Assembly (NCBI GenBank): GCA_050306135.1
Contig: JBNLGQ010000029.1
Coordinates: forward strand, 43,585-107,584
DNA length: 64,000 nt
Origin: Gammaproteobacteria bacterium
Lineage (GTDB): Bacteria; Pseudomonadota; Gammaproteobacteria; GCA-001735895
Reading direction: 5' to 3'
The notes beneath the pieces are model-generated. The model saw only the letters and a list, made by a program, of their open reading frames with translations. It ran no database searches and was not told the DNA's origin. Below are positions 3,162 through 61,154 of this stretch, one piece after another; the first letter of the stretch is position 1, and the number at the start of each line of letters is the position of its first letter. The position numbers and the translations under genes are program-made.

Positions 3162-3164
3162 CTC

Positions 3165-4376: not shown

Positions 4377-4393
4377 GTATTAGCCTGAAAAAA

Positions 4394-4580: not shown

Positions 4581-4628
4581 AATATTAATCCTAAGCTATT
4601 CCTAATTCCTACAGAATCAGCGCCCAAA

Positions 4629-8495: not shown

Positions 8496-8516
8496 ATAAA
8501 CATTTTTATTATAAAT

Positions 8517-9701: not shown

Positions 9702-9905
9702 TAGGTGTGCAATAATTTTACTTGATAAGGTAGAAAGTATAATCATACCACTTTTTCAACATTTAAACGGATCTCGCACCCCGTACTATTGCAATATATA
9801 GAAAGCTTGAATTTAATATGTGAAATCTATTCGAGAATACATCGTTTACTATCTTCTTATACTAGTGAAAACCGTACGAATTTTTTAATATTAGATCTGA
9901 CAACT

Positions 9906-40108: not shown

Positions 40109-40117
40109 GGAGAAAGA

Positions 40118-41111: not shown

Positions 41112-41119
41112 GATCTAAG

Positions 41120-41985: not shown

Positions 41986-44653
41986 GTTCACTGCCGCACA
42001 GGCAGCTTAGAAAGGTGCCTTGGGCACGAGCAATCAATTTTGAGAGTTCACTGCCGCACAGGCAGCTTAGAAATGCCTCCAGCACCTTTTTATATTTATC
42101 ACCGAGTTCACTGCCGCACAGGCAGCTTAGAAAATAATATACTTTTGCTATATGAAGTTTCGGAGTTCACTGCCGCACAGGCAGCTTAGAAATTCGAGCT
42201 TAACGGTGTCACCCGCGTCGGCCAGTTCACTGCCGCACAGGCAGCTTAGAAATGGTTACGGTACCGCTCCGACATCACACGGACCGTTCACTGCCGCACA
42301 GGCAGCTTAGAAATATGCAAGTGCAACCTCGTTTACTGTTGTAGGGTTCACTGCCGCACAGGCAGCTTAGAAATATCGAATAAATAACCGCTATCTGGCG
42401 GAATTGTTCACTGCCGCACAGGCAGCTTAGAAAAAGCTATGGACACAGGGCAGAGGATTTTCCTCGTTCACTGCCGCACAGGCAGCTTAGAAAATTAACT
42501 ATAAACTCATGAGATGGCATGCAGGGTTCACTGCCGCACAGGCAGCTTAGAAATCGTGTTGCCTACGTATAGCCGCCATAACTTCGTTCACTGCCGCACA
42601 GGCAGCTTAGAAAATCGGCGTAGTCGATTGCTCGCTGTATCGGCCGTTCACTGCCGCACAGGCAGCTTAGAAAATTGGATGGCATCGCGTCATTTGAGTC
42701 TACAGGTTCACTGCCGCACAGGCAGCTTAGAAAAGTCAATGAAGCAGGGGTTGGTATAGCGATTGGTTCACTGCCGCACAGGCAGCTTAGAAACGGATGC
42801 GCATTCATTGAAAACAGCCCAATGCGTTCACTGCCGCACAGGCAGCTTAGAAATTTACTCATCTAATGAAAGAGCTGGGCGAATTGTTCACTGCCGCACA
42901 GGCAGCTTAGAAATCCTAATACTGATTGGCAGCTTGCGGCAACTAGTTCACTGCCGCACAGGCAGCTTAGAAAACCCACAGATACCATCTGTACGTGGAG
43001 TCATTGTTCACTGCCGCACAGGCAGCTTAGAAAACAGTAACCTCACATCAGAAATTCTGCAAACCGTTCACTGCCGCACAGGCAGCTTAGAAATGAACAC
43101 GCGACATTTGAGGATGGCGGGAATGGTTCACTGCCGCACAGGCAGCTTAGAAATTCTTCAATCGCATCGAGTACTGCGGTTACAGGTTCACTGCCGCACA
43201 GGCAGCTTAGAAATACAAAATGGAATACTTCATATATGACAACTGGTTCACTGCCGCACAGGCAGCTTAGAAAATTACCAGCAAAGACAGACTGCAGCTG
43301 ATTACGTTCACTGCCGCACAGGCAGCTTAGAAATGCTATAAAGGCAGCGTGGTGTTTTCAGTCGGGTTCACTGCCGCACAGGCAGCTTAGAAAATTGTCA
43401 ACGCCATGCAGCCAGCGTACCCACGGTTCACTGCCGCACAGGCAGCTTAGAAATCAATAGCCATTAGCTCCTTACGACGCATAATGTTCACTGCCGCACA
43501 GGCAGCTTAGAAATTGTTAGAGTCCCCGATAAACCGACTATACATGTTCACTGCCGCACAGGCAGCTTAGAAAATCAACTAGAGTATCTGCATCAGGTAA
43601 TTCTGGTTCACTGCCGCACAGGCAGCTTAGAAACCTACTGGACGCGATCATCACCAGCGAGTAACGTTCACTGCCGCACAGGCAGCTTAGAAACAGCAGA
43701 TCCAGCGTCAGATCGTTGTTATCGCGTTCACTGCCGCACAGGCAGCTTAGAAAACCTTCAGCATTTGCTGATAGCGACCCGACATGTTCACTGCCGCACA
43801 GGCAGCTTAGAAACAGTGGATTGCCGGTAGTACCGCACTCAACCCGTTCACTGCCGCACAGGCAGCTTAGAAATGTGTGTTCTGCACGCATTCAGAAAGA
43901 AAGAAGTTCACTGCCGCACAGGCAGCTTAGAAAATGTACCTAGTTCATCTAAAACTAAAAGCCCAGTTCACTGCCGCACAGGCAGCTTAGAAAAGCTCAG
44001 GACCCGCGACATCAGTGGGTACCGGGTTCACTGCCGCACAGGCAGCTTAGAAAAATTCAGATAAATGGTACTGTACGCGAATCGAGTTCACTGCCGCACA
44101 GGCAGCTTAGAAATCTGAAACAACATCTCTAGCATGTGTACCACCGTTCACTGCCGTACAGGCAGCTTAGAAACAAATTCCGTAATTAGTAGCAGAATTT
44201 TTAGCGTTCACTGCCGCACAGGCAGCTTAGAAAGTTAAGGTCTTTTGGCCAGGTCATCAGAAACAGTTCACTGCCGCACAGGCAGCTTAGAAATAGTAGA
44301 ATTAACTAGCTATATCATCGATAAAGTTCACTGCCGCACAGGCAGCTTAGAAAATTGATTCGCACAGCTCAAGGAATGTAATTACGTTCACTGCCGCACA
44401 GGCAGCTTAGAAATAGATAGGTTCGAGTCGCCGCGGACGCCCCTTGTTCACTGCCGCACAGGCAGCTTAGAAAAGTTTTTGATTGCACTCTGGCAAAACT
44501 TTTTAGTTCACTGCCGCACAGGCAGCTTAGAAAAAGTCGATTCAACTTTAGCAGTAGAACCATGCGTTCACTGCCGCACAGGCAGCTTAGAAAACAGTAC
44601 AATTTAAAACCAGTAGCCAGATTATGTTAACTGCCGCACAGGCAGCTTAAAAC
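41986..44653 (+). CRISPR. Type I-F CRISPR array: 45 copies of the 28-bp repeat GTTCACTGCCGCACAGGCAGCTTAGAAA with 44 spacers of 31-33 nt
   Basis: The repeats were counted directly: 60-nt periodicity from 41986 through 44626. The repeat has the I-F (Yersinia-type) stem 'CTGCCGCACAGGCAG'. One internal repeat carries a SNP (44146-44173, 'CTGCCGTACAGGCAG'). The last repeat (44626-44653) is degenerate: 'GTTAACTGCCGCACAGGCAGCTTAAAAC'. Confidence 0.97.
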
Positions 44654-45024
44654 CGGATATGGGTAAATCATTATGCATACATCGAATGGCCGGCAAGTGA
44701 GCGACTCATCTGCGACAGCATACCTGTCTGTTATATTGCTTGATAGCAGCTGTTATAGGATCCTTTCAAGGCGCCATATTGTTGAGTTGGCTATCACAAT
44801 TCAGGTGAAATTTTCTGAAGACGTTATTCATCTAACTGATCTGAATATCAATCCCAAAATCGATGGCTGCGAGAAATTGATTTTGTGAGAAAAGAAAAAA
44901 CACATTTTTTGTTTTTTGTGCACTGAGAATTCAGGGATGAATTATTCAGGTCTCTCCCAAATAAACCATTTTTATCAAACTGTCATAATCCCCCTATAAG
45001 CTTGAATCGTTTAAATTAATTAGT

Positions 45025-46782
45025 GTGAAAGGCATGATCAATGTCGAGGCAATGCTGGATAATTTTTTACCGGACTTTAGAAACAAAAAGAAACGTCTGT
45101 ATAAAACAACAGTAGCTGTATTAAAAAAGATCCTGCATCAGGATGAAATCAATCAGTTTATTGACAGCCATAAACACCTTGAAGGCGTGGAGTTTCTGGA
45201 TGCGGTGCTGGACCATTTTGATTTTAAATATAGTCTGTCCAATCGCGACCGCGCTAATATCCCCGCACAGGGGCGTGTCATTATTGTGGCGAATCATCCA
45301 TTAGGTTCTCTGGATGGGCTGGCTTTATTGAAAATGGTTTCCGAGATCCGTCCTGATGTGAAAATTGTGGCGACTACCGTGCTGAGTCAGGTTAAACCGC
45401 TGGAGAATCTGTTTCTTAGCGTGGATAACCTGTCGAGTAAAGCGAGCCATATTGCCAGCCTGAAAAAGATTCTGGCTGCCTTGCAGCAGGAACAGGCGGT
45501 GATTATGTTTCCTACGGGAGAGGTTTCCCGCATTCGTCCACAGGGTGTGCGTGATGGCAAGTGGAAAACGGGCTTTGTCAGCATGGCTTACAAATCTAAC
45601 TCACCAGTGGTTCCTGTTTTCATTAATGGGAAGAATTCTACGCTGTTTTATAGCATGTCTACTCTGTATAAACCATTGGGTACCCTGATGCTGGTGATGG
45701 AGATGTTTAATAAGCAGGATCAGGAAATATCTTTTCGCGTGGGTAAACCAATTCCTGTTAATTCAATGAAGTTGCTGGATCTGCCACCTAAAAAAGTTGC
45801 AAAGCGGATGCGTAAGCAGGTTTATCGTTTGGCAAAAAATTTTAAGAAGCCACTATTCGAAACCATTGAAAATATTGTGCATCCGGTTAATCGTAAAAAT
45901 ATCCGCGATGAGCTTAAGCAATCTGAGTTTCTGGGTGCCACTCAGGATGGTATGGAAATCTATTTATTTGACTACCGATCAAATTCCAGTGTGATCCGTG
46001 AAATAGGAAGGTTAAGAGAGCTGTCGTTTCGACAGGTGCATGAAGGTACAGGCAAATCTATCGATGTTGATGAGTTTGATCGTTACTATCGCCATCTGGT
46101 GTTATGGGATGACAAGCAACTGGAGATCGTTGGCACTTATCGTATTGGTGAAGGTGCGCGTATCCTGGCGCAACATGGCATACAGGGGTTTTATACCAAT
46201 ACACTGTTTGAGTTACAGGGCTGTATGGTGGGTTATCTTGAAAAATCAATTGAACTGGGGCGTAGTTTTATCCAGCCACGTTACTGGGGTAAGCGTAGTT
46301 TGGATTACCTTTGGTATGGTATAGGTGCTTATCTTCAGAAACACCCGCAGGTTGAATATATGATTGGTCCTGTCACCTTGAGTGCTTCCTACCCTGAACA
46401 GGCGAAGCATGAAATTGTAAACTTCTATCAGCAATTATTTGGCAATAGCGATAATCTGGTTAAACCCAGACTGCCATATGATTACCCGGTTAGCAGTGAC
46501 TATGCTGAGTATCAGCAGGTATCTCAGGAATCAGATTATAAGCAGGCTTATTCACGTTTGAAAGTGAAGCTGGATGAGTTAGGGGTCAGAGTACCGACCC
46601 TGTTCAAACAGTATGTTGAGCTATGTAAGCCGGGTGGTTGTGAATTTCTGGGATTCAATGTGGATCCGGAATTTTCAAACTGTATAGATGCGATGATACT
46701 GGTACATATTGATGCGGTTTATGAAAAGAAGCGAGATCGTTATATCAATGTACATAATGTTAAAGTTGAGCAAGCTGCTTAG
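45025..46782 (+). CDS. Bifunctional acyltransferase: N-terminal PlsC-type (HX4D) domain fused to a C-terminal OlsB/GNAT-like N-acyltransferase domain. It is OlsF-like and a candidate ornithine/amino-lipid synthase.
   Basis: 585 aa with an 'VIIVANHPLGSLDG' HX4D motif and a 'FPTGE' block typical of lysophospholipid acyltransferases. The roughly 280-aa C-terminal half is of the hemolysin/OlsB-like acyltransferase type ('GTYRIGEGARIL'). This architecture matches the published OlsF of Serratia and Flavobacterium as I recall it. Confidence 0.5.
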   Translation: MKGMINVEAMLDNFLPDFRNKKKRLYKTTVAVLKKILHQDEINQFIDSHKHLEGVEFLDAVLDHFDFKYSLSNRDRANIPAQGRVIIVANHPLGSLDGLALLKMVSEIRPDVKIVATTVLSQVKPLENLFLSVDNLSSKASHIASLKKILAALQQEQAVIMFPTGEVSRIRPQGVRDGKWKTGFVSMAYKSNSPVVPVFINGKNSTLFYSMSTLYKPLGTLMLVMEMFNKQDQEISFRVGKPIPVNSMKLLDLPPKKVAKRMRKQVYRLAKNFKKPLFETIENIVHPVNRKNIRDELKQSEFLGATQDGMEIYLFDYRSNSSVIREIGRLRELSFRQVHEGTGKSIDVDEFDRYYRHLVLWDDKQLEIVGTYRIGEGARILAQHGIQGFYTNTLFELQGCMVGYLEKSIELGRSFIQPRYWGKRSLDYLWYGIGAYLQKHPQVEYMIGPVTLSASYPEQAKHEIVNFYQQLFGNSDNLVKPRLPYDYPVSSDYAEYQQVSQESDYKQAYSRLKVKLDELGVRVPTLFKQYVELCKPGGCEFLGFNVDPEFSNCIDAMILVHIDAVYEKKRDRYINVHNVKVEQAA

Positions 46783-47270: not shown

Positions 47271-47972
47271 ATGAAAAAAAGAATAACTAGTACTGTAGGT
47301 GTATTCACTGTTTTAACATTGATCACGATAAATGCTTATGCGGCCCCTTTTCGTCTACTGGGTGAAGTGGCCGATACCGGTGCTGCAAGCGCTGGCAGTG
47401 AGTCTGCTATTTATAACTATGATACCAATGCTGATATGCACTCTGGCACTTACAGCAGTTGGTCTTATACAGGATTCGACTGGAACTCAAGCTATTCAAC
47501 TGCAGGATTGGCATACGATGGCAAATACCGCCTAATAGGTGAAGTGGCCAACACTGGTGCTGCAAGCGCAGGTAATGAATCTGCTATTTATACCTATGAT
47601 TCCTACGCGGATATGCAGTCGGGCAATTACAGCAGCTGGTCTTATACAGGATTTGACTGGATTTCAAGTTATTCAACCGCGGGATTGGCATATGATGGCA
47701 AATACCGTCTGTTAGGTGAAGTAGCCGATACCGGTACTGCAAGCGCAGGTAGTGAATCTGCTATTTATACCTATGATACGTTCGATGATATGCTGTCTGG
47801 AACTTATAGTAGCTGGTCCTATACAGGGTTCGACTGGATTTCAAGTTATTCAACCGCGGGATTGGCATACGAATCTATACCAACATCTGAAGTACCAGAA
47901 CCAACGAGCCTTTTACTTATGGGGCTAGGGTTAGTAGGACTAGGATTTGCTCGTAAAAAACGAATCGTATAG
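47271..47972 (+). CDS. Secreted PEP-CTERM protein with three tandem repeats of about 59 aa
   Basis: It has a signal peptide. It then has three near-identical units ('RLLGEVADTGAASAGSESAIYTYD...SGTYSSWSYTGFDWISSYSTAGLAYDGKY'). The C-terminal sorting signal is 'VPEPTSLLLMGLGLVGLGFARKKR' (PEP + TM + basic). Confidence 0.75.
   Translation: MKKRITSTVGVFTVLTLITINAYAAPFRLLGEVADTGAASAGSESAIYNYDTNADMHSGTYSSWSYTGFDWNSSYSTAGLAYDGKYRLIGEVANTGAASAGNESAIYTYDSYADMQSGNYSSWSYTGFDWISSYSTAGLAYDGKYRLLGEVADTGTASAGSESAIYTYDTFDDMLSGTYSSWSYTGFDWISSYSTAGLAYESIPTSEVPEPTSLLLMGLGLVGLGFARKKRIV
47346..47880 (+). repeat. Three tandem direct repeats of about 177 bp inside the PEP-CTERM gene
   Basis: The DNA-level periodicity corresponds to the three protein repeats. 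There are only a few substitutions between copies. Confidence 0.8.
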
Positions 47973-48231: not shown

Positions 48232-48852
48232 TCATTTTGTTGTCAGGCTTTCATCATACCAGTCACTCATATCATCAATCATTTCACCCTTAATCAGGTA
48301 ATAAGGTGCTTTATGGTAAATATAGAAATCATGGAATGGATCGGTCAATATTTTGCTAAACCATACCAGACCCGATTGAATGCCCATGATGAAGAACAGA
48401 TGAACAGTTCTAAAGATTAATGCACCAGCGCCTATAAAAAGCCACAGCACTGAGGTGTTATAAATAAACTCATTCAGCGAGGTGTGAGGCTGTAGTAGAC
48501 CGAAAAAGTCAGGGTTGAAATACAGTACAAGAGGGGCGGCTACCCATACTGATAACAGTACAACCTTTCTACGTAGATTATAACCCACCTTAATACTTTC
48601 CTTGTATGCCTGACTGGCATCGTTGATCTCGTCGTACTCCAACGGTTCAAAGAAAAAATGTCCGCTTTGACGTAATACCATGGCCAGTAACCAACCGATC
48701 ATTACGGCTGCCACGGGATTGATAAAGATCAGTACGTAACTGGCCATAAAGCAGATACAGCTCAAAAAGTGTAAAAACTGATTGATTCGGTTCTGGTGAT
48801 AGTAACGATGATCATCCCAGCGTTGCTGACGTAGTTCCTGCATAAAAGTCAT
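48232..48852 (-). CDS. DUF962 / Mpo1-like integral membrane protein, last gene of the lipid operon
   Basis: 206 aa with four TM helices. It has an N-terminal 'YYHQNRINQFLH' (HxxN-type) segment and a 'GHFFFEP' motif, resembling the Mpo1/YGL010w family as I recall it. Confidence 0.45.
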   Translation of the reverse strand: MTFMQELRQQRWDDHRYYHQNRINQFLHFLSCICFMASYVLIFINPVAAVMIGWLLAMVLRQSGHFFFEPLEYDEINDASQAYKESIKVGYNLRRKVVLLSVWVAAPLVLYFNPDFFGLLQPHTSLNEFIYNTSVLWLFIGAGALIFRTVHLFFIMGIQSGLVWFSKILTDPFHDFYIYHKAPYYLIKGEMIDDMSDWYDESLTTK

Positions 48853-48894: not shown

Positions 48895-49773
48895 TTATTC
48901 TGAAATCGATGGCCTTTTTCTGAGTAGCGCCTGCCCCATCAGGATGGGAGTGTCGGTCTGTATATGGTCGAGTAACTGATAGTTAGATGAAGCAAATACA
49001 ATGATGGTTGAGCCATGCTGAAAGTAGCCCATTTCTTCGCCTTTACGATAACTTGCATTGCAGTTTAAATGGTTAGGGCCCTGGTATTTCAAATCCAGTG
49101 TTTCATTCAGGCAGTGGAATTTCATACTCGCCACCAGAATAGCGGCAACCGGCACCATTACCATGCAGTCATCTTGTTTACCCGTATGTAGTTCGATGAC
49201 TGCACGCTCATTTTTGCAATACAGCTTTTCAATGCGTTTAAGTGCTATGGGATTTACGTTCCAGGTGTCGCCGGAGATGTAGGTAATATCCGATACCGAA
49301 CAATCCTGCGGGGCATGGAATCGGTGGTACATGCTGGATTTCAGGCGCAGGGTGACAAAGATGCCATTACTGAGTTTTTTACAAAGACTGGTATCAGGTA
49401 TTAAGTCACTCAGTTCATAGGGGTAGCCCTTGGCCTGAAATAATGACTGGCCTTCAATATTTCCGCAGGCACCAACAATTGCATCACAGGGGCTGGTAAT
49501 AATGTCTTTATTTATATCCACAGGACGACTGCCTGGCTTTAACTGGCGTATAAAACAATCATGCAGGCTGCTGAAGTGTTGCTGTTGTGCTTCATTCAGA
49601 TTTAAATCGCTAGCAAATAGCTTCCATACGGCAATGGAAAAGCGTGTTAGCCATGGATTTTTAAGCTTGCTATACCAGCCCATAAACTGCGTTAGCAGAC
49701 GACGCGGAATACGATTTGTCAGCAGGAAGTTCAGCTGTTCCTGTTGAGTTAAGTGGCGGATTAATGATGTCAT
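48895..49773 (-). CDS. psd: Phosphatidylserine decarboxylase proenzyme
   Basis: It matches E. coli Psd in 'LFQAKGYPYEL', 'YHRFHAP', 'NERAV', and the self-cleavage site 'GYFQHGSTIIVF' (the G-S-T pyruvoyl-forming motif). Confidence 0.8.
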   Translation of the reverse strand: MTSLIRHLTQQEQLNFLLTNRIPRRLLTQFMGWYSKLKNPWLTRFSIAVWKLFASDLNLNEAQQQHFSSLHDCFIRQLKPGSRPVDINKDIITSPCDAIVGACGNIEGQSLFQAKGYPYELSDLIPDTSLCKKLSNGIFVTLRLKSSMYHRFHAPQDCSVSDITYISGDTWNVNPIALKRIEKLYCKNERAVIELHTGKQDDCMVMVPVAAILVASMKFHCLNETLDLKYQGPNHLNCNASYRKGEEMGYFQHGSTIIVFASSNYQLLDHIQTDTPILMGQALLRKRPSISE

Positions 49774-49787
49774 CGTGTGACAGATGC

Positions 49788-52508
49788 TCAGGCAACAGAA
49801 CGCGTTGCAAGTGGTTCCAGCACTATTGCTGACTCTTCACCCAGGCCCATATCTTCAGCAAACTGTTGCATGATCGGTTCTGCCTGATAATCTTCGCTGC
49901 GTAACCTGGCATTACCTTTCATTTTATAGCGCAGATCTGCATCGCTAAAATATTTGATGATGAGTTCAGCCATGTCATGCATATCCTCTGCGAGGAATCC
50001 GCTGACTCCATGCTGGATGATATTTTTCGGTCCTTTGCAATTATAGGAAACTACCGGCATACCATTAACAAAGGATTCCAGGATGACGTTACCAAAGGTG
50101 TCAAAGCGTGATGGGAAGACTTTAAGATCCAGTCCAGCATAAAGCTGGGACATGCGAGTTTTGTCAACCCAGCCCAGATACAGGGCTTCAGGGAATAGCT
50201 TTTTCAGTTCTTCTTCAGCTGGCCCAGATCCAGCAATGACCATGCGCACATCGGGTATGGCATTTTTTACCATGCGGTAAATTTTGGGTAATTCAAAGAT
50301 GCCTTTTTCCTTGCTGATACGGCTGGCAAATAGCATGACCTGAGTGTCTTCAGTTGCATCTTCAAATAGTGTGGCTTTGTCTACAGGTATTATAGAGACA
50401 TCCCTTGCCTGAGTATGATGCGCAGTTAGTAATACCTTATCCTCGTCCAGTTGCATCTGGTGACCGGTAAGCCAGTCTCTATGGTCATCATTAAGTACAA
50501 ATACACCAGCGAACTGTTGATAGAAGAAACGCAATATTCTGCGTAGCCGATCAATTTCATGCTGATTTAAGTCGGTTGTGTTATGGATGAAATCGAGCCA
50601 GTCGGTATGCATGAAAAAGTAGGCAGGCACATTAAACATATGTTTGATGAATAAGGCTGCAAATGCCATGGGCCCTTCGGTGGAGCAGACAATGCGATCA
50701 TAGCCACCTGCATAAAAGATGCGTGCAATCTCCATAAAATCCGGGATGCGTATCTCCTGTTCGCCGAATTCAGAGAGTGTCAAACTGGTTAAGGGACGTA
50801 TCACATGTAAATGTGGTGCTGCTTCGGCATCAGCGTGGCAGATGAGAAAATCGATGGGTAGATCAGCCTGCTGTATATGTTTCAATTTACCCGATAAGGA
50901 ACTGGATACACCATTTTTATCCAGCAAGGTGTCCGTAAGATAGAGCGCCCGCCTGGGGTGATGGCTGGTACCAATATGGTCGGCAAACTCATTCAGGAAG
51001 CGTCTGTTCTGATACAGTAAACGGGTACTAGCCAGCGTTGTCCCTAGTAGTATCACGCCTACTAAAAAAGGAAACGATAAATTATCCAGTAGCGAAGAAA
51101 AGTTGTAACAACTCATCCCCGGTTTATTGCTTTTACCCCCAAAGATTAACTCTGTGAGCTGGCTGGGTACTTCAAACTTGCGTGTCAGCTCTTCGCTGGA
51201 AAATGATTTCAACTTGTATTCGCTGGTACTACTGGATGTGGTTTTCAGGCGCTTTATAACCAACAGGTTGAGTCCTTTAAAAAGTGCTGGTATCGCTTCG
51301 TTAACGGTCTGGATGAAAACTTCAGTAGATTTGTTTCTACTATCTGCAATGTTTTCCAGATGTTGAATACAGAAGCGATAATCTTTTTTGATTTTCCATT
51401 TAACCAGTTTATTGGGTTTTTTACCCTGTAGGGCATCGTGGATAAACTTGAAGAACTTCTGTGTGTTTTTATGTTTCTGCATCTCCAGTAACAGATTACT
51501 GATAAGGAAACAGGCCAGTTTGTCGGACACTTCACCACGATGAAACATAATGCGCAATAAGCCGGGGTCCTGGATATGCGTAGCAACCTGAGAGAAGTAA
51601 TCCAGCAGAGCGATATTCAGTTTCTGGTTTTCAGCAACAAGGCCATAGGGAGCAATATTGCCTTTGCGAATGGCTTCCAATGCCAGTGTCGAAGCCGTAT
51701 CGGTTTTTAATCGCTGCTTGAGATTTGGGATATATAGATAACTGCCAGATTGACCGGCAAACATACCCATATGATCATCTGAGCCACCGCTTAGTACTTT
51801 TGCCTGATCTGGGTCCACACCAAATTCAGCTGGGTTAAGATTATGCTTGCGTCCGTATGCGCGTATTTTTTCTGCGCTCAGGCTTTTAATCCATTTCAGG
51901 GTTAGTACCGATTGCCATTGATCTCGTTGGCCGTTGACGACTTCAAAACGTTGAAACATAACCGCCAGTTTTTCGAACAGGGAGAGATTGATTTTGTCAT
52001 TACGTGTATAAAAATACAGTGGATGCGGCAGAATAACGGGAATGTCACATTTATGTGCATAACGCAGAAACTGATAGATGTTGTCACGTTTATGATTGAG
52101 CTCCTTTTCCTGATGACGATTAAAACCATAGGCCAGCACATGTACGAATAAATCATATTCAGGAAAGTGGCAGGTAAACTCAGCGGCAGTTAAAACATCT
52201 TCACCCTGATCCTGTAATTCCCAGCAGGAATTCGCATTATTATGATTGGTGATGGTAATGACATCACAGTGACTTTGTTTAAGTTGTTTGACCAGCTTTT
52301 TGGTTTTCAGCCAGGTTTCGGGCAGGCCAAGAATGCGACCCCATAGCTCATCGGGTACATCGCTGTTTTTATCATGGCAGTGCAGGTCAATCTTAAGGCA
52401 GTCTTCGCGTTTGAAGCGGTTGGATTCGTTGAGTAGATAAGCATTGAACTCACGGGTTAAGGAATTTCTAAATTCACTTACTGATTCGTTTGATGTAGGT
52501 AATATCAT
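49788..52508 (-). CDS. Fusion protein: N-terminal PHP-family metal-dependent phosphoesterase domain, a central TM segment, and a C-terminal GT4 (GT-B) glycosyltransferase domain
   Basis: The PHP motifs appear in order: 'IDLHCHD' (HxH), 'ITNHNN', 'EF..HFPEYD', 'VHVLAYG', 'LPHP', and 'GGSDDHMG' (DxH). There is a TM helix 'FPFLVGVILLGTTLA'. The C-terminal GT4 domain has 'VMLFASRISKEKG', 'VRMVIAGSGPAEEEL', and 'FGNVILESFVNGMPVVS' (E-X7-E region). Confidence 0.65.
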   Translation of the reverse strand: MILPTSNESVSEFRNSLTREFNAYLLNESNRFKREDCLKIDLHCHDKNSDVPDELWGRILGLPETWLKTKKLVKQLKQSHCDVITITNHNNANSCWELQDQGEDVLTAAEFTCHFPEYDLFVHVLAYGFNRHQEKELNHKRDNIYQFLRYAHKCDIPVILPHPLYFYTRNDKINLSLFEKLAVMFQRFEVVNGQRDQWQSVLTLKWIKSLSAEKIRAYGRKHNLNPAEFGVDPDQAKVLSGGSDDHMGMFAGQSGSYLYIPNLKQRLKTDTASTLALEAIRKGNIAPYGLVAENQKLNIALLDYFSQVATHIQDPGLLRIMFHRGEVSDKLACFLISNLLLEMQKHKNTQKFFKFIHDALQGKKPNKLVKWKIKKDYRFCIQHLENIADSRNKSTEVFIQTVNEAIPALFKGLNLLVIKRLKTTSSSTSEYKLKSFSSEELTRKFEVPSQLTELIFGGKSNKPGMSCYNFSSLLDNLSFPFLVGVILLGTTLASTRLLYQNRRFLNEFADHIGTSHHPRRALYLTDTLLDKNGVSSSLSGKLKHIQQADLPIDFLICHADAEAAPHLHVIRPLTSLTLSEFGEQEIRIPDFMEIARIFYAGGYDRIVCSTEGPMAFAALFIKHMFNVPAYFFMHTDWLDFIHNTTDLNQHEIDRLRRILRFFYQQFAGVFVLNDDHRDWLTGHQMQLDEDKVLLTAHHTQARDVSIIPVDKATLFEDATEDTQVMLFASRISKEKGIFELPKIYRMVKNAIPDVRMVIAGSGPAEEELKKLFPEALYLGWVDKTRMSQLYAGLDLKVFPSRFDTFGNVILESFVNGMPVVSYNCKGPKNIIQHGVSGFLAEDMHDMAELIIKYFSDADLRYKMKGNARLRSEDYQAEPIMQQFAEDMGLGEESAIVLEPLATRSVA

Positions 52509-54229
52509 AGCTCGCTAACCTCTTCGGCTTTGGGCAGGCCTGTGTAGCCAGTTTTCGGTTTTATCCATCTGGAAAGCACGGGAAAGCGAGCAGCAATCAT
52601 TTCTTTCAACATTATTCGCTTGATGGCTTTATTACTCAGATTGGGGTTATGCCACCACCAACCATCATTTTTCATCTGCCTGGCAGCAGCAATAAATAAA
52701 TCAACTACCTTCAGAAAATCTTCATCGCTGAAATTATGGCTCATGATGATTCGGCCACTACCAACCCAGCTGAGACTCAGTCCCTGCGCTTTCAGATAGA
52801 ACTGAAACATCCAGTTATAACGCGATGGCTGGGTATACAGAATGGTCCAGATAGACATGAGGTTGGCAATTCTAACGGGCAGGCCTTCGTCATGCAGACG
52901 CTTGTTGAGCAGGCTGACGCGCGCGTTCCATAGCTCATCGGCATGTTGATAATTGTTTTGATACTCAGGCTGCTGAATGCGCGTTAAGAACTGATGCATG
53001 CAGGCCATCACATAAGGATGTGAATTAAAGGTTCCGCGTGCGAAAGAGATATCTACAGGCTGTTCAGGTTTATAGCGTTTCATCAATGCATGACTGCCAC
53101 AGACCACACCTACAGGCAGTCCGCCACCCAAGGTTTTGCCGTAGGTAACTATGTCTGCCTGTATGCCAAAATACTCCTGAGCACCACGATAACCCAGACG
53201 AAAACCGGTAAACACTTCATCAAAGATTAAAACGATAGCTCGTTCGATACAGACTTCACTGACCTGCTTTAACCACCGACTATAGGCTTTTCGATCAAAG
53301 TGAGCGCTACGGTCGCTGTTAACCAATGAAGCATCGCTGGAAGCATCGGCGTTAGGATGTAAACCCTGTAAGGGATTGATCAGTACACAGGCGATATCAT
53401 TACGTGTACGTAACACCTTTAATGTTGTGTCGCTCATATCCTGTAGTGTGTATACATCATGGCTGGCACGCTGGTTACCTATGCCTGGTTGTACACCATC
53501 CCACCAGCCGTGGTAGGCGCCGCATAAACGAACCAGATGCGTTTTTCCCGTGTGGTAACGTGCCAGACGAACCGCCTGCATCACAGCCTCGGTGCCGGAC
53601 ATGTGAAAAGATACTTCATCCAGGCCGGATATCTTTTTTAAGCGCTCAACATTGCTTTTAATAATGGGGTGATAGGCCCCAAGTACTGGACCCATATCTT
53701 TCACCATTTCCATGCCGTCCTGCATGCACTGTTTGTAAAAATCATAACCAAACACGTTGACCCCGTAAGAGCCAGTCAGGTCATAGCTCCAGTTACCATC
53801 CAGGTCTTTAACCTTGACACCTTTTGATTCCTTCACGGCATTGGGCAGGGTTAATTGGGTAGCGAGGTATTTTCTATAAGGAAAGGGAACTCGATACTGG
53901 TTGGTGAATTCAACATCTGAAATACTGTCCTGCACTGAGTGATTGAATTCAATGCCTTTGAGCATGTGTTGATTAAAATGCTTTTTGAGTCTGTTCAGGG
54001 CCTGACGGCGTTGCTGAGTAATATTCTGCGGGGCAGCATCGCTACAGAAGAAATTAACTTCATTGTATTCAAAGTAGGGGATGAGCCTTGCAACACGGCG
54101 TGACATTTTTGAATGTCCGCGTAGCGATGGATGTTTGGCGCGTGAAAGGCGTAAGCGAATCCATAGTCTATAGGATAGATACAATGCAATAAACAGGATG
54201 AAAATATTTTGTAGTGTAATCTCGGGCAT
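52505..54229 (-). CDS. Membrane-anchored class-III (GSA-aminomutase-like) PLP-dependent aminotransferase, first gene of the lipid operon
   Basis: 574 aa. The N-terminal TM helix is 'IFILFIALYLSYRLWI', followed by an extension of about 100 aa. The class-III core has 'FDEVFTGFR' and the PLP-lysine motif 'YGKTLGGGLPVGVV'. It overlaps the downstream gene by 4 nt. Confidence 0.7.
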   Translation of the reverse strand: MPEITLQNIFILFIALYLSYRLWIRLRLSRAKHPSLRGHSKMSRRVARLIPYFEYNEVNFFCSDAAPQNITQQRRQALNRLKKHFNQHMLKGIEFNHSVQDSISDVEFTNQYRVPFPYRKYLATQLTLPNAVKESKGVKVKDLDGNWSYDLTGSYGVNVFGYDFYKQCMQDGMEMVKDMGPVLGAYHPIIKSNVERLKKISGLDEVSFHMSGTEAVMQAVRLARYHTGKTHLVRLCGAYHGWWDGVQPGIGNQRASHDVYTLQDMSDTTLKVLRTRNDIACVLINPLQGLHPNADASSDASLVNSDRSAHFDRKAYSRWLKQVSEVCIERAIVLIFDEVFTGFRLGYRGAQEYFGIQADIVTYGKTLGGGLPVGVVCGSHALMKRYKPEQPVDISFARGTFNSHPYVMACMHQFLTRIQQPEYQNNYQHADELWNARVSLLNKRLHDEGLPVRIANLMSIWTILYTQPSRYNWMFQFYLKAQGLSLSWVGSGRIIMSHNFSDEDFLKVVDLFIAAARQMKNDGWWWHNPNLSNKAIKRIMLKEMIAARFPVLSRWIKPKTGYTGLPKAEEVSEL

Positions 54230-54315
54230 GCTCGCGGACCGGAATATAATTTGCGAGACGCTAACATGTGAAAATGACAGTCTGGTTTCAATGTTGAAGT
54301 TTCGGTATTTTTAAT

Positions 54316-54397: not shown

Positions 54398-54558
54398 TCC
54401 TGTTTTTTTCGTTCCCATGCTCTGAGATGGAATGCGTATGAACTGGCGTGGCAATGTGACTTTTCTTTTAGATTCTGTAACAAAAATTTAATAATTCCAT
54501 AACATTTTCGACATATTTAAAGGCTAAAGTGTGCCGCATTAAATTTTCGAGAAGTGTA

Positions 54559-55401
54559 ATGTCTGAAGCCATCAGGATTTCATCGTTGTCCAAAACCTTC
54601 AACAGGAAGATTGCGTTAGATGATATTTCTATACGCATAGCTGAAGGTGAAATTGTGGCACTGATCGGCCCCAGTGGGTCAGGTAAGTCTACTTTACTAC
54701 GTCACATTGCAGGACTTGAAGTTTCGGATAAGAATTCAAGCACTGAAGTTACCGTAGATGGATTGCCGGTACAGAATAATGGCAGGCTGACAAAAGGTGC
54801 CAGAAAGGCACGCGTTAAAATAGGACTCATCTTTCAGCAGTTTAATTTAATAAATAGATTGAATGTGCTGACCAATGTATTGATCGGTTGCCTGGGTAGT
54901 ATTCCCGCCTGGCGTGGCACTCTAGGTATTTTCACTCAACAGGAAAAGAGCAGGGCGTTGGAGGCGCTTGATCGTGTCGGGTTAAAGGAAATTGCCTTTC
55001 AACGAGCCTCTACCTTATCGGGTGGGCAACAACAACGCGTTGCGATTGCACGCAGTTTAATGCAGCAGGCCAACGTCATACTTGCCGATGAGCCTATTGC
55101 CTCTCTCGATCCAAAATCAGCCAAAACCGTCATGCGTTATCTACGCGATATCAATAAGCATGATGGTAAGTCAGTGGTTGTAACCCTGCATCAGGTGGAT
55201 TATGCGCGTAAATACTGTAAACGCGTCATAGCACTGGTGGATGGAAAAATTGCTTTTGATGGAAAAGCCAAAGAGCTCACCGATAAGGTTCTGGAAAAAC
55301 TCTATGGCACAGCAATGTCAGATGACGATGAAGATGTCATTGTCGAACAGCAACAACCTGTCTATCCGGCAGCCAAATTGATAGCTGGTATATCAGGTTA
55401 A
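54559..55401 (+). CDS. phnC: Phosphonate ABC transporter ATP-binding protein
   Basis: It has Walker A 'GPSGSGKST', the signature '[13 protein letters not shown]', and Walker B 'ILADEP'. The start is set at ATG 54559. The ORF is open from 54529. Confidence 0.85.
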
Positions 55402-55428
55402 TCATTAATTAAAAAACTGGAGTACTAT

Positions 55429-56439
55429 ATGTTTCGTAAATTTATCAAGCCTGCCATAGCCGCGGCTGCAATTACTGCCTCAGTGATGATGCCAAGCGCC
55501 TCATTCGCTGACACCAAAATCCTGAATTTCGGTATTATCTCAACCGAATCATCGCAAAATCTTCGCACTATCTGGAATCCCTTCCTGGAAGATATGGGTA
55601 AAAAGCTGGGCGTAAAGGTTAAAGCATTTTTTGCACCTGACTATGCCGGTATTATCGAAGGCATGCGCTTTAACAAGGTAGATGTTGCCTGGTTTGGAAA
55701 TAAGTCTGCTATGGAAGCGGTTGATCGTGCAGGCGGAGAAATTTTTGCACAGACTGTTGACATAGAAGGTAACCCTGGTTACTGGTCATTACTGGTTACC
55801 CATAAGGATAGCAAAATTAATTCAGTTGAAGATATGCTGAAAAATGCGAAGGACCTGACTTTTGGTAACGGCGATCCTAATTCAACGTCGGGTTTCCTGG
55901 TGCCTTCATACTATGTTTTCGCTAAAAACCATGTAGATCCCAAGAAAGCATTCAAACGTGTACTGAATTCAAATCATCAGACTAATCTACTGGCCGCTGC
56001 TAGCAAGCAGGTAGATGTTGCTACTAACAATACTGAAAACTACCGACGCCTTGAAGTCACTCATCCTGACAAGGTTGAAAATATCAAAATTATCTGGAAA
56101 TCCCCTCTGATTCCTTCTGATCCAATCGTATGGCGCAAGAATATGGACGAAGGCACCAAGAACAGGATTTATGATTTCTTCATGACTTATGGTACTCAGG
56201 ATAACAGGGAAAAAGAAATTCTGACTGCTTTACAGTGGGCTCCTTTTAGTGCATCTAGCGATGATCAGTTGATTCCTATCCGTCAGCTGGTGCTATTCAA
56301 AAAGCGTGTAAAGCTTGAAGCCGATGAGCAGTTATCAGCCAGTGAAAAGAAAGCAAAGATTGCTGAAATTGATGATCAGCTGAATGTACTTAAGCGTCGT
56401 TCTGCTGCACTACAGGCCTTCGCTGCAAAAAATTCATAA
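55429..56439 (+). CDS. phnD: Phosphonate ABC transporter periplasmic binding protein
   Basis: 336 aa with a signal peptide. It has the PhnD-family binding-protein pattern and sits between phnC and phnE. Confidence 0.8.
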   Translation: MFRKFIKPAIAAAAITASVMMPSASFADTKILNFGIISTESSQNLRTIWNPFLEDMGKKLGVKVKAFFAPDYAGIIEGMRFNKVDVAWFGNKSAMEAVDRAGGEIFAQTVDIEGNPGYWSLLVTHKDSKINSVEDMLKNAKDLTFGNGDPNSTSGFLVPSYYVFAKNHVDPKKAFKRVLNSNHQTNLLAAASKQVDVATNNTENYRRLEVTHPDKVENIKIIWKSPLIPSDPIVWRKNMDEGTKNRIYDFFMTYGTQDNREKEILTALQWAPFSASSDDQLIPIRQLVLFKKRVKLEADEQLSASEKKAKIAEIDDQLNVLKRRSAALQAFAAKNS

Positions 56440-56467
56440 ATCCATTTGTCTGTCCCCGACGGATATT

Positions 56468-56497
56468 CCGGGTCGTGTATACGACCCGGTGTTTTTA
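56468..56497 (+). terminator. Intra-operon hairpin/attenuator between phnD and phnE
   Basis: 'CCGGGTCGTGTATACGACCCGG' is a perfect 8-bp stem followed by TGTTTTT. Confidence 0.6.
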
Positions 56498-56577
56498 TAA
56501 ATCATTTCATCAAAGACTAAAAGTAAAAGGGCTTTAATGAAATGAAACCGCTGTTATGAATTCTTTAGGTCAACACA

Positions 56578-57366
56578 ATGAGTGAAACACTAAATTTAGA
56601 AAACCCGCAACAACGCAGCTCAATAATTAATCTTATTGGTTGGGCTGCGGTTTTACTGTTGCTGAGCTGGTCCTGGAAGGGGGCAGAAATGAACCCCTGG
56701 GCGCTGGTTGAATACAGCGGCAATATGCTGGAGCTGGGGGCTGATTTTTTTCCTCCCAATCTACATGACTGGGATCTGTATGTTCATGAAATGATTATCA
56801 CGGTGCAGATAGCAATATGGGGAACGGTACTGGCGATTGTCGCTGCGGTACCCTTTGGGATTCTGTCTTCAGAAAATCTCATGCCGTGGTGGATATCCCA
56901 GCCGACGAGACGACTGATGGACTCAGCCCGGGCCATCAATGAAATGGTTTTCGCGATGCTGTTTGTCGTCGCCGTGGGGCTGGGACCTTTTGCAGGTGTG
57001 ATGGCCTTGTTCGTCCACACCACAGGGATTCTGGCGAAACTGTTTTCAGAGGCCGTTGAAGCCATAGAACCAGGTCCAGTAGAAGGCGTGCGTGCAACCG
57101 GTGCAACTGCCATACAGGAGATAATTTATGGTGTCATTCCACAGGTATTACCGCTATGGATTTCTTTTTCACTGTATCGTTTTGAATCCAATGTACGCTC
57201 TGCCACGGTACTCGGCATGGTGGGCGCGGGTGGTATTGGTGTCATCCTGTGGGAAAGTATTCGCGGCTTTATGTTCCAGGAAACCTGTACCGTGATACTG
57301 ATTATTATTGTATCGGTGACCCTGCTCGACCTGCTCTCACAGAAGCTACGCAGAATGGTGATTTAG
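56578..57366 (+). CDS. phnE: Phosphonate ABC transporter permease
   Basis: 262 aa with six TM helices of the binding-protein-dependent permease type. It lies downstream of phnD. Confidence 0.8.
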
Positions 57367-57810
57367 GTGAATACACAACAACGACAGCAATTGATTTCAG
57401 TATTGGCCAAATCATCTTTGTCCGATATCAAAAAATACTGGAAGCAATCTTTAGAAGATTTTGATTACAGCACATTACGTCAGCCTCAAACAGGCATGGT
57501 AATGGCAGTTGCCAGAACAGAGGCCAAAGGCGATCCGTTCAATTTGGGTGAAGTCAGTGTAACACGCTGCGCAATAAGGTTAAGCAGCGGCGAGACTGGA
57601 ATTGGTTATGTAATGGGCAGTAATAAGGAGCACGCACTACATGTCGCGATGCTGGATGCTATTGCGCAAAAGCAGAATCAGTACGCAGAGGTACATGCTC
57701 AGCTTATACAACCATTACAGCAAAAGCTTTTACAGACGCATCAAAAACAGCAGCAAAAAACAGATTCAACCCGGGTAGATTTTTTTACCATGGTGAGAGG
57801 AGAAGATTAA
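57367..57810 (+). CDS. phnG: C-P lyase core complex subunit PhnG
   Basis: 147 aa. The C-terminal 'RVDFFTMVRGED' matches the E. coli PhnG C-terminus as recalled. Confidence 0.8.
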   Translation: MNTQQRQQLISVLAKSSLSDIKKYWKQSLEDFDYSTLRQPQTGMVMAVARTEAKGDPFNLGEVSVTRCAIRLSSGETGIGYVMGSNKEHALHVAMLDAIAQKQNQYAEVHAQLIQPLQQKLLQTHQKQQQKTDSTRVDFFTMVRGED

Positions 57811-58421
57811 TGAATAATATTCAAGACGTTGTACAGGTACAACCAGGGCTTAGTAATCCCGTTTACGATTCGCAGGGGATCTTTCGCCTGTTATTAAAAG
57901 GTATGGCTGAGCCGGGCCTTATTGCACGCCTGGACGATGTACCTGACTTTCCGGTGGGGCTGAATGCGGCAAGTTATGCGGTGGCGCTTGCATTGTTTGA
58001 TCAGGATACGCGTATCAACCTTACCGCTTCTCTACAACAGACAGCGATCAAAGAATCATTACGCTTCCATACCGCAGCTGCATTAGTAGAGGACTGTGAT
58101 ACGGCCGATTTTGTCATCTGTAATGAATCTGACCGTCCCGATCTGGATCAGCTGAATGCCGGCACCGAAACCTATCCTGATCAATCCTGTACGCTGATTA
58201 TTCAATGTGAATCTTTTTTTAAGGGCATCATCTATCGAGCTAGCGGTCCGGGTATTGAAACCTCGCGTAAGATCCGTTGTAGCGGCTTTAACGGTACGCT
58301 TCTGCATCAGCGAGAAAATCTGGCCGCTCAATTCCCGCTGGGTATAGATTTGATTCTCAGCTGTGGGCGTGAGTTTTTCTGTATTCCACGGACCACCAAA
58401 CTATTGATCGAGAATAACTGA
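57810..58421 (+). CDS. phnH: C-P lyase core complex subunit PhnH
   Basis: 'LRFHT', 'FPLGIDLILSCG' and 'IPRTT' match E. coli PhnH. Confidence 0.8.
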   Translation: MNNIQDVVQVQPGLSNPVYDSQGIFRLLLKGMAEPGLIARLDDVPDFPVGLNAASYAVALALFDQDTRINLTASLQQTAIKESLRFHTAAALVEDCDTADFVICNESDRPDLDQLNAGTETYPDQSCTLIIQCESFFKGIIYRASGPGIETSRKIRCSGFNGTLLHQRENLAAQFPLGIDLILSCGREFFCIPRTTKLLIENN

Positions 58422-61150: not shown

Positions 61151-61154
61151 AAAC

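Follow-up and report, generated by a model that had tools for sequence, protein, structure and literature searches.

The window, i.e. the whole 64,000-nt stretch of gammaproteobacterial DNA that we analyzed, carries a four-gene cassette on its minus strand. The second gene (49788–52508, minus strand, ATG start) encodes a 906-aa protein that fuses a PHP-type domain to a lipid-type GT4 glycosyltransferase, here called PHP-GT4; Pfam, a homolog alignment and structure all contribute to this assignment. Upstream, gene 1 (52505–54229, minus strand) encodes a 574-aa membrane-anchored class-III PLP enzyme resembling GSA aminomutase (PF00202, 119 bits), whose stop overlaps the gene 2 start. Downstream are gene 3 (48895–49773, minus strand), for a 292-aa member of the phosphatidylserine (PS) decarboxylase family with the HGST self-cleavage motif (PF02666, 183 bits; TIGR00163, 164 bits, exceeding its cut-off), and gene 4 (48232–48852, minus strand), for a distantly Mpo1-like (DUF962) membrane protein of 206 aa with three hydrophobic segments and invariant His and Asp residues. 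The order aminotransferase, PHP-GT4, PS-decarboxylase homolog, Mpo1-like protein is kept in approximately 70 of 80 genomes, and hydropathy prediction places the entire cassette at the membrane. A predicted sigma-70-like promoter for the cassette, TTCACA-18-TATATT (54243–54272, minus strand), was identified as a consensus match at 10/12 positions, and its −35 element is overlapped by Pho-box-like direct repeats, TTGAAACcagaCTGTCATtttcACATGTT (54263–54291, minus strand), found by consensus scoring.

The fusion is genuine. A length of ~900 aa is common to all of the best 120 of 1191 homologous protein clusters, and 520 matches were confirmed among species-representative genomes. Carriers number in the hundreds among Gamma- and Zetaproteobacteria from the sea and from sediment, with cultured representatives in Marinobacter, Colwellia, Paraglaciecola, Psychromonas, Halioglobus and Cycloclasticus, and include methanotroph MAGs (Methylococcales); besides the window-type family there is a distant one, family B. 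Full-length homologs in such numbers exclude an assembly or frameshift artifact, and the initial annotation was right both in its two domain calls and in treating the fusion as real; it is also widespread. PHP-GT4 is annotated as "glycosyltransferase" because no sequence model recognizes its PHP domain. A literature search found no paper on the fusion or on the four-gene operon, and the sole mention of a PHP domain in the lipocone paper is unrelated to PHP-GT4.

Structural matching gives the N-terminal domain (residues ~36–292; 51633–52403, minus strand) the distorted (beta/alpha)7 barrel of the PHP fold. Its metal ligands follow the order HxH, (H/D), H, E, H, H, DxH (H43/H45, D50, H89, E110, H123, H162, D244/H246), so that the PHP motif series read earlier from the N-terminal part proves to be a complete nine-ligand set, in a region that matches PHP-fold structures. 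All nine ligands are invariant or nearly so in an alignment of 24 homologs, and they are kept in the distant family B as well. Sequence searches with Pfam, NCBIfam and PDB phmmer did not detect the domain: the window protein has no Pfam match to PF02811 or PF13263 at E<0.1, and a PDB profile search with a 15-sequence alignment gave one match, which was spurious. Relatives at 30–35% identity show weak PHP matches (17–21 bits, under the 26.4 cut-off) and a PHP_C match of 23 bits versus a cut-off of 21.3. Since PHP-GT4 has no Pfam PHP match above the gathering score, its PHP membership rests on fold, motifs and profile-profile linkage. Pfam found no Metallophos (calcineurin-like) match either, the N-terminal domain having the PHP fold.

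Because one of the two best structural matches of this domain, PsfC, is a di-iron enzyme with oxidative rather than phosphoesterase chemistry, we go only as far as to infer phosphoesterase activity. PsfC suggests a rival, namely that the PHP-like domain is an O2-dependent di-iron enzyme rather than a hydrolase, and that it remodels or builds a lipid headgroup oxidatively in concert with the Mpo1-like protein and the aminotransferase, e.g. in a glycolipid with an amino or other modification for which the GT4 supplies the sugar. This is unlikely, given that all nine ligand positions of the trinuclear phosphoesterase type are conserved, that hydrolases or nucleases account for the 20 other top structural matches, that some genomes have PHP-GT4 downstream of a Pho box with neither the oxidative nor the other cassette partners, and that PAP2 phosphatases hold the equivalent position in other lineages (see below). 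As a phosphoesterase, the PHP domain could hydrolyze phosphatidic acid instead of removing a phospho-headgroup.

Between the two domains lies a Lys-rich region (residues ~293–470; 51099–51632, minus strand) that is highly conserved in sequence and modeled as helical with low to medium pLDDT, followed by a hydrophobic, Pro-containing helix (residues 477–495, LSFPFLVGVILLGTTLAST; 51024–51080, minus strand). This helix has a Kyte-Doolittle 19-residue mean of 1.75 and is conserved among homologs, and an analogous segment, also Pro-containing, occurs in family B. The initial annotation had a TM helix follow the PHP domain directly and link it to the GT4; the hydrophobic helix is there, but the ~180 aa of conserved helical region intervene, and with both domains necessarily in the cytoplasm, the transmembrane linker is doubtful. 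GT-B enzymes draw on cytoplasmic UDP-sugars. The purely hydrophobic core of the helix is just ~15–17 residues, and the first 476 residues of the protein contain five invariant cysteines and no signal peptide; a probable monotopic or re-entrant membrane anchor is for these reasons more likely than a bilayer-spanning linker, which the cysteines, the missing signal peptide and the use of cytoplasmic UDP-sugars all speak against.

The GT4 (GT-B) domain (residues ~517–890; 49839–50960, minus strand) is complete, as had been claimed: PF00534 (97 bits) and PF13439 (30.1 bits) both exceed their cut-offs, and Foldseek matches its two-Rossmann GT-B fold to BshA, PimA and MshA with TM ~0.8. It bears the motifs STEGPM, H634, SRISKEKG (729–736) and FPSRFDTFG...E811 (798–811). 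D803-x7-E811, the phosphate-binding R730/K735 and the catalytic H634 are invariant among the 24 aligned homologs, leaving the catalytic and UDP-binding motifs intact; the first of these is the region originally described as E-X7-E, present as stated but beginning with Asp. The domain is a remote homolog of the P. aeruginosa PA0842/Agt2-type protein (27% identity over 288 aa, E 3e-23), a stronger match than the best solved GT4 structure found by sequence (1e-9). PA0842/Agt2 has been purified as a glucuronosyl-diacylglycerol (GADG) synthase, and its gene has a Pho box (PMC8528852); an Asp-for-Glu FPSxxDTFG motif and an essential His have been reported for the DAG-dependent GTcp/Agt clade (PMC8231724). 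The GT4 of PHP-GT4 has both features, which are also common across GT4. The matched P. aeruginosa gene sits downstream of plcH-plcR. In Ralstonia, Acinetobacter baumannii and Bacillus mycoides, three lineages unrelated to one another, the next-closest GT4 genes directly adjoin a gene for a PAP2 lipid phosphatase, an arrangement that may be read as analogous gene displacement.

The Foldseek matches of the GT4 domain include sucrose-phosphate synthase, MshA and BshA, its top NCBIfam partial matches are BshA-like, and synthase-phosphatase fusions are the commonest reason for joining a GT to a phosphatase. These points, and the mostly marine carriers, would suit an order of reactions in which the GT4 first glycosylates a phosphorylated soluble molecule (glycerol-3-phosphate, a sugar phosphate or an inositol phosphate) and the PHP domain then dephosphorylates it, giving a compatible solute or headgroup precursor by the logic of sucrose-phosphate synthase/phosphatase or MshA/MshA2. 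We regard a soluble acceptor as quite unlikely: the hydrophobic anchor is conserved and the partner proteins are membrane-bound, the nearest annotated relatives of the GT4 domain either act on lipids or come paired with a lipid phosphatase, a PS-decarboxylase homolog is linked to PHP-GT4 in two distant families, and the Pho-box-like sites and phosphate-stress neighbors described below favor phosphorus sparing over osmoprotection.

The partner genes recur with PHP-GT4, the aminotransferase upstream of it in 72 loci and the PS-decarboxylase homolog downstream in 65. Gene 1 has an N-terminal TM helix (residues 4–22), and in the PDB it best matches the amine-transferase domain of the mycosubtilin synthase MycA (E 4e-47; GSA aminomutases, 1e-32); a homolog search with it returned solely orthologs from the same cassette, so independent context is absent. 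PF06127 matched all 11 of the gene 4 family members scanned, at best with E 2.5e-5 and near the gathering score, and in one distant locus a gene 4-type protein is fused to the aminotransferase. With an aminotransferase, a PS-decarboxylase homolog and an Mpo1-like protein beside PHP-GT4, the operon implies chemistry beyond that of PlcP-Agt. Amination of hopanoids (HpnO-like) was set aside as a role for the cassette, since we take most carriers to be non-producers of hopanoids.

Equivalent repeats with 11-bp phasing precede the first cassette gene in other genomes, across many genera. Scored with a simple consensus on phylogenetically related sequences, 22/44 of the regions upstream of the cassette reach at least 10/14, compared with 32/226 for the remaining intergenic regions of those loci (Fisher p=7e-7). 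In a set of 67 upstream regions the same threshold is passed by 38/67 when the sense strand is read, by 6/67 when the reverse strand is read, and by ~4/67 after shuffling. Stand-alone PHP-GT4 genes in Luminiphilus have a 12/14 site upstream. Like the Agt-type remodeling genes with their Pho box, the cassette thus has enriched Pho-box-like repeats at the level of the sequence motif, and it is apparently under phosphate-starvation control.

Several neighbors recur. A PhoD gene lies directly upstream in 4 loci, pstB adjoins the distant family-B fusions in 8 loci, and a DUF2334 gene is a recurrent neighbor of family B. An OlsF-like ornithine-lipid synthase gene is a neighbor in 7 loci; the window has one too, with a Pho-like site of its own. 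OlsF is known to be Pho-regulated (PMC12971839). The gene for UDP-glucose 6-dehydrogenase, a neighbor in 5 loci, gives only a hint about MGDG/GADG formation. A divergent phnCDE-GHIJKLM operon adjoins the cassette in the window and at one other locus, and because of this limited distribution we rejected the idea that the PHP domain substitutes for PhnP in the neighboring C-P lyase pathway. Functional ties to a CRISPR-Cas neighbor and to the adjacent PEP-CTERM protein gene of the window were likewise dropped, neither being conserved elsewhere. The PEP-CTERM gene also bears on another proposal, that the operon remodels the envelope under phosphate limitation by dephosphorylating and glycosylating lipid A/LPS core or a polyprenyl-phosphate-linked intermediate; GT4 does include LPS-core and polyprenol-linked transferases (WaaG, PglA, PglH), and LPS is known to be modified under Pi starvation. 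With that neighbor not conserved, LPS and polysaccharide genes missing from the recurrent neighbors, PS decarboxylases acting on glycerophospholipids, and the known lipid A phosphatases being periplasmic PAP2 enzymes whereas PHP-GT4 is cytoplasmic, we consider envelope remodeling very improbable.

Our preferred reading, to which we give about an even chance, is that PHP-GT4 serves in phosphate starvation on the cytoplasmic side of the membrane, where it makes diacylglycerol and glycosylates it, by analogy with PlcP-Agt. A one-protein analog of that pair had been suggested in the initial annotation, and it gains indirect support from the Pho-box-like repeats, the Agt2-like GT4 and the PAP2-paired relatives. 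We infer regulation, substrates, order of steps and partner roles as follows. The bifunctional protein would be induced by phosphate starvation and sit at the cytoplasmic face of the inner membrane, with the short hydrophobic helix between the domains keeping both active sites at the membrane. The N-terminal PHP metal centre would hydrolyze a glycerophospholipid phosphoester, either converting phosphatidate to diacylglycerol and Pi or making a phospholipase-C-type cut in PE/PG, and both routes would end in diacylglycerol. The C-terminal GT4 would then move glucose or glucuronic acid from a UDP-sugar to this diacylglycerol, such that a phosphorus-free glycolipid replaces the phospholipid. Of the partners, the PS-decarboxylase homolog, the PLP enzyme of class III and the Mpo1-like protein, a putative Fe(II) oxygenase, would most likely process the PS/PE amino-headgroup: it would be decarboxylated to a primary amine, the amine would be removed in a PLP-dependent step, and an oxidative cleavage would follow. 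This chain may either provide the PHP domain with phosphatidate or clear away the headgroup once it is released.

A diacylglycerol supply by the PHP domain alone would leave the strict co-conservation of the PS-decarboxylase homolog, aminotransferase and Mpo1-like protein unexplained, and a headgroup-stripping role for these genes is more elaborate than a simple phospholipase. As a more tentative possibility, held with low confidence, the cassette may encode an as yet undescribed pathway for stripping or rebuilding the headgroup of a lipid during phosphate starvation. The PS-decarboxylase homolog would yield an ethanolamine-type amine on a membrane lipid, the membrane-anchored PLP enzyme would then remove or transfer the amine, the Mpo1-like Fe(II) oxygenase would split the resulting C2 unit, and the PHP domain would free inorganic phosphate before the GT4 caps the diacylglycerol with sugar. 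Such a pathway would turn aminophospholipids into glycolipid with both P and N recovered in the cytoplasm; alternatively, the same enzymes might build an undescribed amino-glycolipid that substitutes for PE.

The swap of phospholipids for phosphorus-free lipids is a major response of marine bacteria to phosphate scarcity, and lipid replacement also alters antibiotic and phage susceptibility. PlcP is, to our knowledge, the one route to diacylglycerol as the intermediate that has been well described in bacteria. PHP-GT4 probably swaps phospholipids for sugar lipids by an undescribed route, which would make it a second one, non-homologous to PlcP, whose recognition would improve the reading of P-stress markers in metagenomes. 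Three little-understood gene families also gain a context from the cassette: a bacterial Mpo1-like protein, an additional PS decarboxylase and a "GSA aminomutase" whose annotation is wrong.

Among known systems, the closest comparison is with the PlcP-Agt pair of SAR11, Phaeobacter, Sinorhizobium and Pseudomonas aeruginosa (PA3219/PA3218 and PA0842). In both, the genes are preceded by a Pho box (Pho-box-like for PHP-GT4), and a metal-dependent phosphoesterase step yielding diacylglycerol is coupled, or in our case proposed to be coupled, to a GT4 that makes MGDG/GADG; the GT4 of PHP-GT4 shares with its remote homolog Agt2 the GRxxxEK and FPSxxDTFG...E motifs and the catalytic His. In contrast, PlcP is a calcineurin-like metallophosphoesterase, while PHP-GT4 has a PHP barrel and is not a PlcP member, although it may work alike; its phosphoesterase and transferase form one polypeptide, joined by a helical region and a hydrophobic anchor; and its operon adds a PS-decarboxylase homolog, a class-III PLP enzyme and an Mpo1-like protein that have no PlcP-Agt counterparts. 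The PAP2 + GT4 pairs of Ralstonia, A. baumannii and B. mycoides have a GT4 of the same sub-clade coupled to an enzyme of lipid-phosphate-phosphatase type, and the Ralstonia locus even shares DUF2334 with the family-B neighborhoods; unlike in PHP-GT4, the two enzymes are encoded separately, the phosphatase has an integral-membrane PAP2 fold, and PS-decarboxylase, aminotransferase and Mpo1 partners are missing. Compared with PHP phosphoesterases such as TM0559, BAD_1165, RNase AM/TrpH, YcdX, histidinol phosphatase and CpsB, PHP-GT4 is too divergent for PF02811 or PDB profile searches, has a presumed lipid substrate and is fused to a GT. PsfC, of the fosfomycin pathway in Pseudomonas syringae, is a di-iron oxidative decarboxylating enzyme that acts on a phosphonate, without membrane or glycosyltransferase context. 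Finally, unlike the SPS-SPP and TPS-TPP fusions, PHP-GT4 has no HAD domain by Pfam or NCBIfam, and it has a hydrophobic anchor and membrane-bound operon partners.

The reading frame at 49788..52508 (minus strand) is real, beginning at an ATG and encoding 906 aa. Its C-terminal part is the GT-B/GT4 glycosyltransferase proposed in the initial annotation: Glyco_transf_4 (residues 543-683) and Glycos_transf_1 (residues 719-869) both match above cut-offs in a Pfam/NCBIfam scan, and the C-terminal ~390 residues of the full-length AlphaFold2 model (pLDDT 76, pTM 0.75) take a GT-B/GT4 fold, with Foldseek TM ~0.8 to BshA, PimA and MshA. The predicted acidic motif exists, but as D803-x7-E811 rather than E-x7-E. 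The first 500 residues gave no Pfam/NCBIfam match, even at E<0.1, and phmmer and profile searches with the N-terminal part found no PHP protein among all PDB sequences; since sequence models could not confirm a PHP domain, the call was tested by structure. An alpha/beta barrel at residues ~12-290 is confident in both AlphaFold2 models (whole protein; residues 1-465), bearing out the proposed PHP fold, and the metal-ligand residues are conserved. Among 24 aligned full-length homologues, 62-82% identical, H43, D50, H89, E110, H123, H162, D244 and H246 are invariant, and H45 is present in 23/24. In P0055, a homologue from a Methylococcales MAG, the first PHP motif reads HCPD rather than HCHD, the change falling at the residue aligned to H45; either a sequencing error or natural loss of the metal site could account for this. 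Because PsfC, almost the best structural match of the PHP-like domain, is a di-iron oxidative enzyme (PMC12871164), hydrolase chemistry is only inferred, from the complete nine-ligand set and the remaining structural matches. The expected hydrophobic helix was found at residues 477-495 (Kyte-Doolittle mean 1.75), not directly after the barrel but beyond ~180 residues of helical, Lys-rich, strongly conserved sequence.

The fusion is real and common, and not the assembly or frameshift artefact considered initially, recurring in related genomes at hundreds of loci. The protein database contains 1191 clusters of homologues, and the top 120 are all ~900 aa and 63-96% identical; exhaustive phmmer with the N-terminal 500 residues as query gave 754 cluster representatives at 50% identity, and a scan of one genome per species gave 520 confirmed PHP-GT4 loci. 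Their main carriers are marine and sediment Gammaproteobacteria (Colwellia, Pseudocolwellia, Paraglaciecola, Psychrosphaera, Psychromonas, Marinobacter, Halioglobus/Haliea/Luminiphilus, Cycloclasticus, Methylococcales, Achromatium, Aliikangiella) and Zetaproteobacteria (Mariprofundus, Ghiorsea); one gammaproteobacterial MAG locus (L001) is 96-97% identical to the window. Source databases name the proteins only 'glycosyltransferase'. A more distant set of ~800-aa PHP-like and GT4 fusions, family B, aligns with residues 38-254 (30-36% identity), and its N-domain is linked to that of PHP-GT4 in a profile-profile comparison (probability 100%, E 6e-47). Members of family B show weak Pfam PHP and PHP_C matches, so that the family is tied to PHP in sequence and not just in fold.

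PHP-GT4 is the second gene of a cassette whose members are co-directional and tightly packed in the window, all on the minus strand. Gene 1 (52505..54229), whose stop overlaps the PHP-GT4 start, encodes a class-III PLP enzyme of 574 aa with an N-terminal TM helix; gene 3 (48895..49773) a phosphatidylserine-decarboxylase family protein of 292 aa with an HGST self-processing motif; and gene 4 (48232..48852) a 206-aa protein with three hydrophobic segments. Across 80 genomic loci compared by tblastn and ORF clustering, order and orientation of the four genes are unchanged on every contig of sufficient length; genes 1-4 were found in 72, 72, 65 and 62 loci respectively, each ~60-70% identical across classes. 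A few genomes, of Luminiphilus, Achromatium, Allohahella and one Zetaproteobacterium, have PHP-GT4 without the other three nearby. In 14 genomes (L003, L004, L009, L016, L020, L027, L032, L033, L040, L054, L055, L063, L076, L080) a ~265-aa multi-pass membrane protein that matches no Pfam family is encoded a few kb or less from the cassette, on either strand.

Databases annotate gene 1 as 'aminotransferase class III' or 'glutamate-1-semialdehyde aminomutase'; the latter label is wrong. Among solved structures it is closest to the amine-transferase domain of mycosubtilin synthase MycA (E 4e-47), which aminates a lipid beta-keto thioester, with glutamate-1-semialdehyde aminomutases ranking behind (1e-32); the PLP lysine motif YGKTLGGGLP is present. 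Gene 4 encodes a distant Mpo1-like/DUF962 protein, PF06127 being matched by 11/11 scanned family members (best E 2.5e-5, near the gathering score); in yeast, Mpo1 acts as an Fe(II)-dependent dioxygenase on 2-hydroxy fatty acids (PMC10398889). A 'Rosetta stone' fusion in the metagenomic locus L084 (121-2337, minus strand; 738 aa), joining an aminotransferase 46% identical to gene 1 and a membrane domain 31% identical to gene 4, ties these two genes functionally. The L084 PHP-GT4 gene is divergent from it (2604-5105, plus strand) and is followed by a sulfotransferase gene (5116-5769, plus strand), a hint that the product in this lineage is sulfated. Six family-B loci have a short PS-decarboxylase homologue immediately upstream of the fusion, so that the link between PHP-GT4 and PS-decarboxylase is ancient. 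A Methyltransf_24 gene precedes this homologue in 7 loci, and other recurrent family-B neighbours are DUF2334, in 10 loci, and a radical-SAM gene and pstB, in 8 each. An Lnt-like protein and phosphoglucomutase also recur in family-B loci L086-L165.

Pho-box-like sites and neighbouring genes suggest that the cassette is under phosphate-starvation control. In other genomes, the region upstream of gene 1 was scored with CTGTCAT-N4-CTGTCAT, the Pho-box consensus applied to the lipid-remodelling genes of Pseudomonas (PMC8528852). A top score of at least 10/14 was reached in 38/67 regions on the sense strand, 6/67 on the opposite strand and ~4/67 in shuffles, and in 22/44 cassette upstream regions against 32/226 for all remaining intergenic regions in these loci (Fisher p=7e-7; Mann-Whitney p=4e-10). 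A typical site is located 60-105 nt ahead of the start codon and consists of three or four 11-bp-phased repeats (for example, in Paraglaciecola, CTGTAATaaaaCAGTCTCaaaaCTGAAAT); sites were found in Halieaceae, Alteromonadales, Marinobacter, Methylococcales and Zetaproteobacteria; stand-alone Luminiphilus PHP-GT4 genes have a 12/14 site. In the window, CTGTCAT-type repeats overlap the predicted -35 of the cassette promoter, within the 300-bp spacer that separates the cassette from a divergent phosphonate uptake and C-P lyase operon, phnCDE and phnGHIJKLM (54529-63707, plus strand). This operon lacks a phnF regulator between phnE and phnG, and the ORFs at the expected phnI/phnJ positions (58421-59527 and 59524-60363) had no NCBIfam match at E<=1e-10. 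Elsewhere PhoD is directly upstream in 4 loci, and UDP-glucose 6-dehydrogenase, which makes UDP-glucuronate, neighbours the cassette in 5.

A 585-aa bifunctional acyltransferase of OlsF type (Acyltransf_2 and GNAT Acetyltransf_5; 45025..46782, plus strand), a probable ornithine-lipid synthase from its domains, has an 11/14 Pho-box-like site ~50 nt upstream (44969-44997); OlsF-type synthases neighbour the cassette in 7 other loci, and in Serratia OlsF is preceded by a Pho box (PMC12971839). Between this gene and the cassette lies a PEP-CTERM-anchored protein (47271-47972, plus strand) made of three near-identical 59-aa tandem repeats (177-nt period, 85% matches), which is not conserved beside the cassette in other loci. 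The window also holds a complete type I-F CRISPR-Cas locus (33982-41671 and 42286-43873), with a Cas2-Cas3 fusion and Csy1-4/Cas6f followed by an array of the 28-nt repeat GTTCACTGCCGCACAGGCAGCTTAGAAA at 60-bp spacing, and a segment at 6001-10000 with GC content 0.32-0.34 (~0.44 elsewhere in the window) that may have been horizontally acquired.

Both catalytic domains must be cytoplasmic: GT-B enzymes work with UDP-sugars, residues 1-476 contain invariant cysteines (C44, C95, C113, C333, C380) and no signal peptide, and the flank after the hydrophobic helix is positively charged. The hydrophobic, Pro-containing segment, present in family B too, is thus best read as a monotopic or re-entrant anchor that keeps the enzyme at the inner leaflet. 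When Pi is limiting, the PHP centre would hydrolyse phosphatidate, or make a phospholipase-C-type cut of PE/PG, to yield diacylglycerol, which the GT4 domain would convert to glucosyl- or glucuronosyl-diacylglycerol; we regard this scheme as evenly balanced between right and wrong. Possibly GT4 instead glycosylates a phosphorylated soluble acceptor that PHP then dephosphorylates, as in sucrose-phosphate synthase/phosphatase, but the membrane and Pho context is a poor fit for this; LPS or a polyprenol is an unlikely target. By itself, the diacylglycerol scheme leaves the three partner genes unexplained. One speculative but coherent chain begins with the PS-decarboxylase homologue making a terminal primary amine, the substrate class of class-III PLP enzymes; gene 1 would remove it by transamination or phospho-lyase-type elimination, and the Mpo1-like oxygenase would cleave the C2 remnant, leaving phosphatidate as substrate for the PHP domain. 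Another possibility is that the three enzymes make a modified amino-glycolipid. We see a low but real chance that new headgroup chemistry is encoded by the cassette as a whole.

Full-text literature searches found no paper on the fusion or on the cassette operon, in line with the initial impression that the fusion had not been described. Its architecture and regulation should be a moderate surprise to specialists; the family is widespread in environmentally important bacteria, and the lipid-remodelling hypothesis is immediately testable in cultured strains.

Against solved structures the GT4 domain is generic (best E 1e-9). Among annotated plasmid and chromid records the better matches form two groups. 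The first is P. aeruginosa PA0842/Agt2, whose gene directly follows plcH-plcR (pairwise E 3e-23, with 27% identity over 288 residues). The purified enzyme converts DAG and UDP-GlcA to glucuronosyl-diacylglycerol, and its gene is Pi-stress-induced and has a Pho box upstream (PMC8528852). The second comprises GT4 genes of Ralstonia (L167 2734-5224, where a DUF2334 gene also occurs), Acinetobacter baumannii (L168 3138-5012) and Bacillus mycoides (L169 2955-4640), each immediately adjacent to a gene for a PAP2 lipid phosphatase; the pairs, apparently uncharacterised, are candidates for additional lipid-remodelling modules. The motifs STEGP, HT(D/N), (G/S)RxxxEK and FPSxx(D/E)TFGNVxLE are common to the domain and its relatives. 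Like PHP-GT4, SAR11 GTcp has Asp, not Glu, at the first acidic position; there Asp and His form an essential dyad, and a D-to-E mutant loses >90% of activity (PMC8231724). Across this sub-clade, GT4 recurrently adjoins an enzyme removing lipid phosphate, be it PlcP, PlcH, PAP2 or the fused PHP, which looks like non-homologous displacement of one functional partner. Phosphate-stress remodelling of phospholipid to glycolipid is a known process; the new element would be the different, fused phosphoesterase.
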